This document shows positions 28,939 to 50,974 of a stretch of DNA of 64,000 nucleotides, one piece after another (the first letter of the stretch is position 1; every line of letters begins with the position of its first letter). The translations under genes and the position numbers were made by a program. The notes beneath the pieces are model-generated. The model was not told where the DNA came from and did not search any database. It saw only the letters and a program-made list of their open reading frames with translations. The DNA is from Ostreococcus lucimarinus (taxonomy: Eukaryota). The stretch lies in NCBI GenBank assembly GCA_000092065.1, contig CP000584.1, one strand, 5' to 3'.

Positions 28939-29478
28939 ATGCCGAGCGTGGTGCAGAAGGGCATCGATAAGGTGCGCCTGATGGCTGGCCTCGAGCCGTC
29001 CGCGCCCGCGCCCGGCGAGCAGACCGCCGAACTCCTCGACGAGTACACGTCGTGCGCATCCTTGACGTACGAGCAGCGCATGTACGGCTTTGCGTTCTGC
29101 GCTCTGTTCGGTGTCATGTGCAGCGCGCTGTCGAGCGTGTTCTGGACGCGACCGACCAAGTTCGCGACGCTGTACAGCATGGGAAACCTGCTCTCGCTCG
29201 CGAGCACGGGGTTCCTGACCGGGTTCGCGAGGCAGCTGAAGAATATGTTTCACGGGACGCGCTTCGCGGCGACGTGCGTGTACCTGGGAGCGCTCATCAT
29301 GACGCTGGTGTGCGCGGTGGAGCTGAAATCGTTCCCACTCACGATGGTGTTCTTAGTCGTGCAGTGGTGCGCGCTGATTTGGTACTGCATGAGCTACATA
29401 CCGGGAGGCCGCGCGGCGCTCAAGGCAATCGCCAAGGCGTGCTGCGGCGCGGGTGGAGAATCGGGTGATTTCTTTTAG
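28939..29478 (+). CDS. SFT2: Vesicle transport protein SFT2 (Got1/Sft2 family, 4 TM)
   Basis: Size, four hydrophobic helices and the family-typical LYSMGNLLSL…FARQLKNMF core. Confidence 0.75.
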   Translation: MPSVVQKGIDKVRLMAGLEPSAPAPGEQTAELLDEYTSCASLTYEQRMYGFAFCALFGVMCSALSSVFWTRPTKFATLYSMGNLLSLASTGFLTGFARQLKNMFHGTRFAATCVYLGALIMTLVCAVELKSFPLTMVFLVVQWCALIWYCMSYIPGGRAALKAIAKACCGAGGESGDFF

Positions 29479-30217: not shown

Positions 30218-31162
30218 ATGCCGCGGTGCGCGAGCGACGACCGACGATGGTCGTCCGCGGACGTCCCGGGCGAGGCGTCGACGCGCGCGCGACGCGAGCG
30301 ACGCGAGCGACGCGTCTCGAACGCGACGACGACGGCGACGACGGCGTCGGACGCGGACGAACGCGACGGACGCGGACGACCGCCGCGCGCGACGACGACG
30401 ACGGGGACGCGCGCGAACGAGACGAACGACGCGACGACGACGGCGCGCGACGACGCGGCGCCGAGCGTGCTGCAAAAATTGCAAAAGTGGGGGGATTACG
30501 AGTCGTGCGGGGACGTCGTGCGCGGGACGCGGTTGATTCCGATGAAGACGCCGCTGTCGCCGCGGTACGTGGAGGAGAATTGCGTGAACGCGCTGACGAT
30601 GGAGTCGCTGATGCGAGGACAGCGCGCGCGAGGACGGGAGATCGGGCTGATCATCGATCTCACGAATCACGATTGTTTGTACGAGGACGACATACCGAGC
30701 GACGTGGCGCGAGTGCACGTGCGAAACGTGGCCAAGGCGGTGCCGAGCGCGAGCGACGTGCGAAAGGCGACGGAGGCGGCGAATAAGTTCTTGGCGACGG
30801 CGGGGAATGAGAATAAGTACATCGCCGTGCACTGCGCGTACGGATTCAATCGCACGGGGTTCGTGATTTGTTGTTATCTAGTGCAAATGTTCGGGGCGAC
30901 GCCCGCGGAGGCGATGGAGCTCTTCGCCGAGGCGCGGCCTCCGGGATTGAAACACTTGCACTTCAGGCACGAGCTCGTCGAACGATACGCGCCGAGCGAG
31001 ACGAGAGGCGATTCAGATTCCCCGATCGACGCCTTGTCGCGGTTGCGAATCCGTCGCTCGTTCGACAGCGAGCCGGATTTCCGCAACGCAATCGACGACG
31101 AGGACGAAAACGACACGCTCGACATCGAGATGAATCGCAAGCACTGGCGCGCGGCGCCGTGA
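30218..31162 (+). CDS. Cysteine-phosphatase of the RNA-triphosphatase/DUSP11 (PIR1) type (mRNA-capping-enzyme-like triphosphatase domain without the guanylyltransferase part)
   Basis: GTRLIPMKTPLS…IGLIIDLTNHDCLYE…IAVHCAYGFNRTGFVICCYLV (HCxxGxxRTG P-loop). ATG at 30218. Confidence 0.65.
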   Translation: MPRCASDDRRWSSADVPGEASTRARRERRERRVSNATTTATTASDADERDGRGRPPRATTTTGTRANETNDATTTARDDAAPSVLQKLQKWGDYESCGDVVRGTRLIPMKTPLSPRYVEENCVNALTMESLMRGQRARGREIGLIIDLTNHDCLYEDDIPSDVARVHVRNVAKAVPSASDVRKATEAANKFLATAGNENKYIAVHCAYGFNRTGFVICCYLVQMFGATPAEAMELFAEARPPGLKHLHFRHELVERYAPSETRGDSDSPIDALSRLRIRRSFDSEPDFRNAIDDEDENDTLDIEMNRKHWRAAP

Positions 31163-31323
31163 CCGGCGCGAGTCTCCGACGGCGTTCTTCGATATTTCTC
31201 CGCACTCGCATTTCTCGCACTCGCGTGCTCTGGTGTAATATGTACTTCAGTTTTCTAGCGCAGCCGAGCGCTCGCGCGGCCCGCTCGACGCGATTCGCAC
31301 ATCGCGACTCCCGCACCGACGCA

Positions 31324-31326
31324 ATG
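31324..31326 (+). CDS. NDUFA1: NDUFA1 (MWFE) exon 1: start codon only (ATG|GTGCGT)
   Basis: The conserved ORF has no in-frame ATG; the track 'M' at 31515 is a GTG. An ATG is immediately followed by the local donor consensus GTGCGT. ACTGAC at 31472-31477 and acceptor CGACAG at 31506-31511 join it in frame. Confidence 0.4.
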
Positions 31327-31511
31327 GTGCGTCCACCGCCCGCTCGCCTCGAACGCGTCGAGATCGCGCGCGCATCGCGTCCGCGCGCGTCGCGCGCGCA
31401 TCGCGCGCGCGCGCGCTCGTTCTCGCGCGCCGACGTTCCACGCGCGGGTTTACCCCAACCCGACATCGACGACTGACGCTCGCGCACGTCGCGATCGCGC
31501 GCGCTCGACAG

Positions 31512-31706
31512 CCCGTGGAGTCCGTTCCACCGTTCGCCATCATCGTCGGCGCCATCACCGCCATGGGCGGGCTGCAGTACCTCACCCACGGCGCGGCGTA
31601 CGGGAAGCCGCGCGCGATCGGGCAGGACGCGTTCGATCGTCTCGTCGCGGCGCGAGACGAGCGCGTCAAGACGGCCGCCGCGAGCGGACGCGGGGCGCAA
31701 AAGTAG
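31512..31706 (+). CDS. NDUFA1: NADH:ubiquinone oxidoreductase (complex I) subunit NDUFA1/MWFE, exon 2 (PVESVPPFAIIVGAITAMGGLQYLTHGAAYGKPRAIGQDAFDRLVAARDERV…)
   Basis: Collinear with plant MWFE (…MGNSQYYIHKAYHGRPKHIGHDEWDVAMERRDKKV…). Confidence 0.7.
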   Translation, partial: PVESVPPFAIIVGAITAMGGLQYLTHGAAYGKPRAIGQDAFDRLVAARDERVKTAAASGRGAQK

Positions 31707-31812
31707 CGCGTTTGAACCGCGACCGGGCGCTCGAGCGCCGTTGTAATTGATCCCTAGAGTAGCGCGGACGCGGCGAATCGAGACGCGACCCGGCGCCGGG
31801 CGAAGCGACACA

Positions 31813-49142: not shown

Positions 49143-49288
49143 CTCGTCCGTCGTCCCTCGTCGCCGGCGTCGCGGTGTGAGCGCGCGTCGCGGTGTGCGC
49201 GCACCGCGATTCGAATCGATCGCGCGACAGCTCGAGTTTGAATTCGCGTTCGCGTCGTCGCGAGTGCGACGCGCGCGAGGGACGACGG

Positions 49289-50974
49289 ATGCGCGTCTCG
49301 ACGTCGACGCGCGTCTCGATCGCGGTCGCGTCGACGCCGCGTCGCGCGCGTCGGCGACGACGCGCGAACGCGACGCGACGACGCGCGTTCGACGACGACG
49401 ACGACGACGACGACGGACTCGATGGACTCGTGCGACGGGCGTGCGCGCGAATCGGACGCGGCGACGAGGAAGCGAAAGAGATGACGGCGCGATTGCGGGC
49501 GAATTGGTTCGAGACGGCGGAGGACGTGCGAGGGATGGGGCCGGAGGACGCGCGCGCGGCGGGAATGCCGGCGAGGCTGTACGCGAGCGTGCGGGCGACG
49601 CTGGACGAGGACGAAGAAGACGACGTAGAGGCGAGAAATGGGGAAACGAAGCGCGAGGAGAGCGAAAGTGGGTGGATCGGGGGGGCGCTGCCGGGCGCGG
49701 GAACGCGCGCGCCGACGGTGACGCGAGAGGGAGGGACGGCGCTCGCCGACGTGCGCGTGACGCAACGGCGACGATTGAAACCGTTTTCTCTGCGCGGCGA
49801 AGAGGTGAGCGCGGAGTTGGAGGAAGAGTTGAATACGCTGGTGAGAGATTTGACGTCGAGACGCGTCGGTGGTGGGCGCGCGCCCGTGCGAGAGCGCACG
49901 GCGATGAATCACGTCGCCGTGGCGAAGCAATTCATGGGATGGTTGTGCCGAGAGTCAGAGCACGCGAGCGAGTTTGCGACTCTGAGCGTCGATGGACGCG
50001 TGGTGTTGCGTCCGGGCGTGTCGTTGCGCGACGCGTTTCCGAAGCGCGAATCCGTAGGCGCGAAGTACGCGATAGAATACGTTCAGTGGCTCAGCGACGA
50101 GCGTCGCATCAAATCGACGACGGAGGATTTTCAGCTGCGAAGTCTCGTCGCCTTGGCGAAGTGGGTGCACGCGTTCGTCGAAGACGACGGTATAGCGCCG
50201 CCGTGCGTGCAAGAGCTCGTTCGAGTGCAGCGATCGGCGCGCGATCGCGCGAAAAACGCCCCACACGCCGCGGACGACGACCGAAAATGGCTCGAATGGG
50301 ATCAGTACTTGGCGCTCGTCGAGCATCTCAAACTCGAGTGCGCGCCGCTGGATTGCAACGGCAAAGAGCGCTCTGAGCGCGAAATCGCGATGAGCGTGCA
50401 GCGCTATTTATTGTTCGCCATCTTGGCGTGCATTCCCGATCGCCAGCGAACGTTGCGCGAGCTGCAGTTGAACAAGACGCTCTTTCGCGACGCCTCCACC
50501 GGCGCGTGGATGGTGCGTCACGGCAGCGACGATTACAAAACGGGCGGCGCCTACGGCGAGCGACCCGCGCTCGTGATCGATTCTCGCGTCTATCCAGCGC
50601 TCGAGAGTTGGCTCTCCACCCACCGAGCCGCGTTATCGCCGTCCCACGACTTTGTTTTCACCCGCCCCAACGGCACGCCCTGGACGGTGAGCGAATTGTC
50701 GCGAACGTTTTCCCGCGCCGCCCTTCGCGTCACCGGCCAAAAGACCAATCCCCACTTGATTCGCGACATGATCGTCACCCACGTCCGCTCTCGCGGCATC
50801 GCCAGCGACGCCGAGCTCGAGGCCTTGGCTCGTTTCATGGGTCACTCCAGCGCCATGCAAAAGTCCACCTACGACCGCCGCACGACGCAAGAAAAAGTCA
50901 ACCCGGCGTTGTCGTTGATGGCCAACGTCAACGCCGCCGCGCCGCCGTCGCGACCGGCGTCCGCGCCGTCCTAG
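49289..50974 (+). CDS. Tyrosine-recombinase (phage-integrase fold; Crypton-like) domain protein
   Basis: The C-terminal 300 aa carries the R…K…HxxR…H…Y catalytic tetrad pattern in the right order (…PDRQRTLRELQL…HGSDDYKTGG…NPHLIRDMIVTHVRS…LARFMGHSSAMQKSTYDRRT…). An N-terminal SAM-like core-binding region follows a poly-Asp (GAC)n tract. First ATG at 49289 (alternative 49481); the track start is a GTG. Confidence 0.55.
   Translation: MRVSTSTRVSIAVASTPRRARRRRRANATRRRAFDDDDDDDDGLDGLVRRACARIGRGDEEAKEMTARLRANWFETAEDVRGMGPEDARAAGMPARLYASVRATLDEDEEDDVEARNGETKREESESGWIGGALPGAGTRAPTVTREGGTALADVRVTQRRRLKPFSLRGEEVSAELEEELNTLVRDLTSRRVGGGRAPVRERTAMNHVAVAKQFMGWLCRESEHASEFATLSVDGRVVLRPGVSLRDAFPKRESVGAKYAIEYVQWLSDERRIKSTTEDFQLRSLVALAKWVHAFVEDDGIAPPCVQELVRVQRSARDRAKNAPHAADDDRKWLEWDQYLALVEHLKLECAPLDCNGKERSEREIAMSVQRYLLFAILACIPDRQRTLRELQLNKTLFRDASTGAWMVRHGSDDYKTGGAYGERPALVIDSRVYPALESWLSTHRAALSPSHDFVFTRPNGTPWTVSELSRTFSRAALRVTGQKTNPHLIRDMIVTHVRSRGIASDAELEALARFMGHSSAMQKSTYDRRTTQEKVNPALSLMANVNAAAPPSRPASAPS

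Follow-up and report, generated by a model that had tools for sequence, protein, structure and literature searches.

The window analyzed here is a stretch of 64,000 nt of the Ostreococcus lucimarinus contig CP000584.1, with a G+C content of about 64%. Its plus strand encodes NDUFA1/MWFE, a nuclear-encoded subunit of mitochondrial complex I. Nearly all of the coding sequence is contained in an open reading frame of 64 codons that begins CCC GTG GAG TCC and ends with the stop codon TAG at 31704-31706 (31512-31706; codons 2-65, PVESVPPF...GAQK). This segment, which carries the MWFE/NDUFA1 domain, is the predicted coding part of exon 2. Upstream are an ATG at 31324-31326, the putative start codon and last three nucleotides of exon 1; a 5' splice site GTGCGT directly after it (31327-31332); a branch-point motif ACTGAC at 31472-31477, whose A at 31476, the candidate branch nucleotide, precedes the 3' splice site by 35 nt; and a 3' splice site CAG at 31509-31511, within CGACAG at 31506-31511. 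The predicted spliceosomal intron between codons 1 and 2 (31327-31511) is of the GT-AG type, is in phase 0 and has a length of 185 nt and a G+C content of 75%. Its removal joins the ATG in phase 0 to the CCC at 31512. If the transcript is left unspliced, the frame of the ATG runs for 50 codons before it meets the TGA within ACTGAC. The locus combines an ATG/GT donor (the slash marks the splice site), a branch motif and an AG acceptor that restores the frame, as a start-codon intron should.

A preliminary description of this DNA had placed the ATG, GTGCGT, ACTGAC, CGACAG and the open reading frame at exactly these positions. It had also spoken of a 3-nt exon. This is apt for the coding part of exon 1, which consists of the ATG only, but the exon as a whole also holds 5' UTR upstream of the ATG, and probably starts between about 31250 and 31323. 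Two other statements have to be corrected. The open reading frame was said to have no in-frame ATG, but one is present at 31563-31565 (Met19), and the upstream frame was said to be closed, but it is open for 91 codons before 31512, with no ATG, GTG or TTG before the GTG at 31515.

The pentamer TGTAA is a polyadenylation signal in green algae such as Chlamydomonas. It occurs at 31234-31238, 72 nt after the stop codon of the upstream phosphatase gene (31160-31162), and again at 31742-31746, 36 nt after the NDUFA1 stop codon. Also in O. tauri and in two further lineages (L012 and L039), TGTAA is found 73-90 nt upstream of the NDUFA1 ATG. This placement fits a green-algal polyadenylation signal combined with very short intergenic spacers.

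Taken by themselves, the splice motifs do not exceed what chance would give, and the finding rests on comparative evidence. The window has two copies of the string ATGGTGCGT, where 0.45 would be expected, and two or more were seen in 5 of 100 shuffled sequences. The composite pattern GTRCGT...CTGAC...AG was found 15 times, compared to a mean of 24 in the shuffles. The second ATGGTGCGT, at 50510, was rejected as a start because it is inside an open reading frame of 593 codons. This long frame (49193-50974, plus strand) has a C-terminal part that matches the Pfam family Phage_integrase (PF00589; 28 bits, cut-off 27.1); it encodes a tyrosine-recombinase-like protein and is possibly part of a mobile element.

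The product predicted by splicing (MPVESVPPFAIIVGAITAMGGLQYLTHGAAYGKPRAIGQDAFDRLVAARDERVKTAAASGRGAQK) scores 55 bits on Pfam MWFE (PF15879), for which the cut-off is 27, with an E-value of 1e-14, in agreement with the NDUFA1/MWFE identity previously proposed for the open reading frame. Protein residues 2-54 align to positions 1-54 of the 55 in the profile. Also matched are NDUA1 chains of solved complex I structures (6x89_A1, E 6e-10; 7a23_V, E 6e-8; 7ar7_a, E 3e-7); the match to Yarrowia NIMM is weak. In the alignments to 6x89_A1 and 7a23_V, residue 3 of the query falls on chain residue 6. This leaves no space for a long extension at the N-terminus, and the spliced N-terminus would sit where homologues have theirs.

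An exact-sequence look-up identified the 65-aa spliced product as ABO95669.1 / XP_001417376.1 / UniRef100_A4RWR5 of O. lucimarinus CCE9901. Compared at the protein level, the identity is 100% over all 65 residues, Met1-Pro2 included, so that the ATG-to-CCC junction proposed in the preliminary description reproduces the deposited protein residue for residue. The UniRef entry A4RWR5 is named NDUFA1, and the GenBank title is "predicted protein [Ostreococcus lucimarinus CCE9901]". Given that a contiguous ATG-CCC-GTG-GAG does not occur in the DNA, the deposited model necessarily connects an ATG with position 31512. The assignment of ATG 31324-31326 as the start codon draws on this identity, on the local sequence and on conservation in orthologues.

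Comparison with NDUFA1 gene models of related algae, which had been suggested as a check, revealed the same structure in two models of O. tauri, OUS49682.1 (strain RCC1115) and CEF97758.1 (RCC4221 v2). Their gene ranges span 404 nt for 66 aa, and the DNA underlying both reads ctcgacATG/GTGCGT, followed by an intron of 203 nt containing CGACTGACG and then by TTCGCAG/CCG ATC GAG AGC. The donor, the ACTGAC branch motif and the CAG/CCG acceptor are the same as in O. lucimarinus, and so is the gene order (Got1, NF-YB-like, DSPc phosphatase, MWFE, small ORF, L7Ae/zinc-finger gene). In contrast, the intron differs in length (203 nt vs 185 nt), its interior is unrelated, and the protein is 80% identical, with Ile rather than Val at residue 3. 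RNA-seq guided the RCC4221 v2 annotation, which also underwent manual curation and in which 89% of the introns were confirmed by RNA-seq (PMC4378021). Introns are present in 19% of O. tauri genes (PMC4378021).

We extended the comparison to six loci fetched singly (the lineages include L002, L012, L016 and L017) and 34 loci from JGI metagenome contigs, which were found by scanning for the genomic pattern of acceptor plus exon. Together, these represent at least ten distinct protein variants. The ATG is followed at once by GT in every Ostreococcus locus in which the region is intact, the exception being a contig with a deletion (L013, see below). The donor is GTGCGT, GTACGT, GTGCGA (10 loci) or GTAGGT (3 loci), and CAG/CC at the acceptor is invariant in all loci. 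Open reading frames called in the prokaryote style translate this CAG as a conserved Gln preceding PVES. Every lineage analyzed carries a CTGAC 23-41 nt upstream of the acceptor, and it is the sole CTGAC of the intron except in L048. The length of the orthologous introns is 175-259 nt and leaves a remainder of 1 or 2, never 0, on division by three. Identity in the intron interior is 57% (50% in a shuffled control), compared to 73% in exon 2. In all loci but the deletion contig, the position of the intron is kept while its sequence and length drift. The scanned metagenome contigs did not contain the spliced junction; this carries little weight, as the collection yielded only unspliced genomic forms (34 loci).

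The pattern of substitution was compared on the two sides of the acceptor. Between lineages, codons 2-18 show 52, 26 and 192 differences at codon positions 1, 2 and 3, and there are 173 synonymous compared to 45 non-synonymous codon pairs. No such periodicity is seen in the 51 nt that precede the acceptor (332, 316 and 311 differences). Thus, the acceptor marks exactly where coding constraint sets in. Upstream of it, the exon 2 frame is closed within 5-15 codons in most lineages, with no ATG in that interval.

An NDUFA1 gene that lacks the intron was identified in a distant relative with roughly 50% G+C (L014, 264-458; ENA ERZ27253056 k141_2078594). Its N-terminus, ATG GCT TGG GAG ACA GTG CCT CCT TTT (MAWETVPPF), is equal in length to the spliced M-PVESVPPF. 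A homologue search with this intron-less protein (P0013) returned only the match to itself.

Taken together, we consider it very probable that the window is nuclear DNA of O. lucimarinus CCE9901 or of a near-identical strain, and that the NDUFA1 start codon in this alga is followed immediately by an ordinary intron. The gene would consist of two exons, the first being a short 5' UTR that ends in ATG 31324-31326. A U2-type GT-AG intron of 185 nt (GTGCGT ... ACTGAC ... CAG) would be taken out by the spliceosome, joining the ATG in phase 0 to the CCC at 31512, and translation of the spliced mRNA would yield a 65-aa single-helix protein, MPVESVPPFAIIVGAITAMGGLQYL... Splicing at exactly these sites in this strain, and likewise the position of the transcription start, are predictions from the genomic sequence.

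The deletion contig L013 (1460-1920; ENA ERZ27294371 k141_217198) has almost the same sequence as the window except that 59 nt are missing, at the equivalent of about 31289-31347, between two GCCCGCTCG direct repeats. The deletion takes out both the NDUFA1 ATG and the 5' splice site. Upstream of the deleted segment, the window encodes another ATG (31240-31242, plus strand) that shares the frame of ATG 31324 without an intervening stop codon, and in the deletion contig its equivalent reads in frame through the former intron to form a 135-aa open reading frame (P0021). None of six JGI loci of the same species has the deletion; it could be an artefact of assembly or else an allele that is rare or null. 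If it is real, the allele cannot use the ATG 31324 start, as it lacks both this codon and the donor. Retention of the intron in every lineage of an intron-poor genus, together with this deletion, could mean that the intron has a function. We see only a slim chance, however, that the intron acts in its own right (for example, by making NDUFA1 translation dependent on splicing) and that natural alleles bypass it by converting the intron to an Arg-rich N-terminal extension.

The same upstream ATG raises the question of a longer exon 1. Initiation at 31240 (MYFSFLAQPSARAARSTRFAHRDSRTDAM) followed by the same splice would add an N-terminal extension of 28 residues, as the shared open frame allows. 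However, in the close relative L039 this ATG is out of frame and a stop codon lies 87 nt upstream of the start, and O. tauri and four other lineages (L012, L023, L024 and L019) lack an in-frame upstream ATG altogether. Furthermore, ATG 31240 is located directly 3' of the TGTAA at 31234-31238, which probably serves the upstream phosphatase gene as polyadenylation signal, and homologues carry only 1-5 residues before the conserved Glu. We conclude that the NDUFA1 mRNA probably does not include ATG 31240, or that this codon goes unused, and an extended protein seems very unlikely.

Even less credible is a start on the unspliced mRNA at the GTG of Val3 (31515-31517, plus strand), with a 63-aa product beginning MESVPPF. 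No bacterial-type start codon precedes it in the frame, and prokaryote-style gene callers emit exactly this product from metagenome contigs (P0002, P0015 and P0016). The codon is not conserved: O. tauri has ATC, L002 has GTC, and both L016 and L024 have GTT. The Pro codon and the CAG before it are invariant. A scanning ribosome would meet ATG 31324 earlier, and the conserved upstream ATG/GT would be left without explanation. We therefore interpret GTG 31515 as a false start of bacterial-type gene callers. Initiation at Met19 (31563-31565, plus strand), the only in-frame ATG within the contiguous open reading frame and a start chosen by some gene callers (P0012, P0028, P0029 and P0035), is just as hard to believe, as the 47-aa protein would be without the N-terminal half of its helix, whereas codons 2-18 are under clear purifying selection by the third-position bias given above and align with the helix of the solved NDUA1 chains and with Pfam MWFE from position 1 onward; Met19 is a conserved residue of the transmembrane helix.

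With the intron after the start codon as the preferred reading, we considered what the intron itself may contain. An Introner-type repeat, as found in Micromonas, was rejected because the orthologous introns are unrelated in sequence. A blastn search of the intron against the window found no full-length copy, and only partial matches to CG-rich low-complexity sequence (125 nt or less, 70-81% identity, both strands). A role as a snoRNA host was also rejected, given that the intron has no Rfam match and that its interior is not conserved. The list of snoRNA hosts of O. tauri is without an NADH dehydrogenase or MWFE gene.

The importance of this case lies mainly in annotation quality. It demonstrates that a gene model with a coding segment consisting of only an ATG can be verified from comparative data of genomes alone. 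Prokaryote-style gene calling on contigs of picoeukaryotes produces wrong NDUFA1 starts of three kinds: at the GTG, by read-through of the intron, and at the internal Met. Read-through is seen in other Ostreococcus clades (L002-L011, 3001-3246), where a chance in-frame ATG within the intron leads to 'NDUFA1' calls of 67-84 aa (P0004, P0007, P0036 and P0048). The N-termini of these proteins are translated intron ending in the Gln of the CAG acceptor, and JGI names the products NDUFA1. Two Ostreococcus nuclear proteins are deposited at NCBI as '[bacterium]': MDA9599225.1 (P0016; window 31515-31706), which is NDUFA1 called from the GTG, and MDA9599228.1 (P0066; window 28939-29478), a Got1/Sft2-like protein whose sequence is identical to that encoded by the window open reading frame. 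This suggests that picoeukaryote contigs were binned into a metagenome-assembled bacterial genome.

The model with an intron at the start codon of NDUFA1 is already known, being deposited for O. lucimarinus and matched by the models of O. tauri. As the exact model is already in GenBank/RefSeq and agrees with those O. tauri models, the case adds nothing new on either complex I or splicing. In plants, NDUA1/MWFE (Vigna, 6x89 chain A1; Arabidopsis/Brassica, 7a23 chain V) shares with the Ostreococcus product a single N-terminal helix followed by a GxPRxIGxDxxD...RD motif. The length of 65 aa and the position of the N-terminus agree within 3 residues, although the sequences are only about 35-40% identical. 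An over-representation of phase-0 introns directly after the ATG is documented for vertebrates, arthropods, fungi and plants, above all in genes for short conserved proteins (PMC1626468). The preliminary description had called such start-codon-only exons rare, which does not hold for an over-represented class, and easily missed by gene finders, which is indeed a known difficulty. Prasinophyte algae were outside the scope of that survey (Nielsen and Wernersson 2006, PMC1626468). The Ostreococcus intron resembles those it describes in being in phase 0 and in interrupting the gene of a short conserved protein that has no signal peptide. The enriched class is lysine-rich and largely ribosomal, whereas the Ostreococcus case concerns a mitochondrial complex I subunit encoded in an intron-poor genome.
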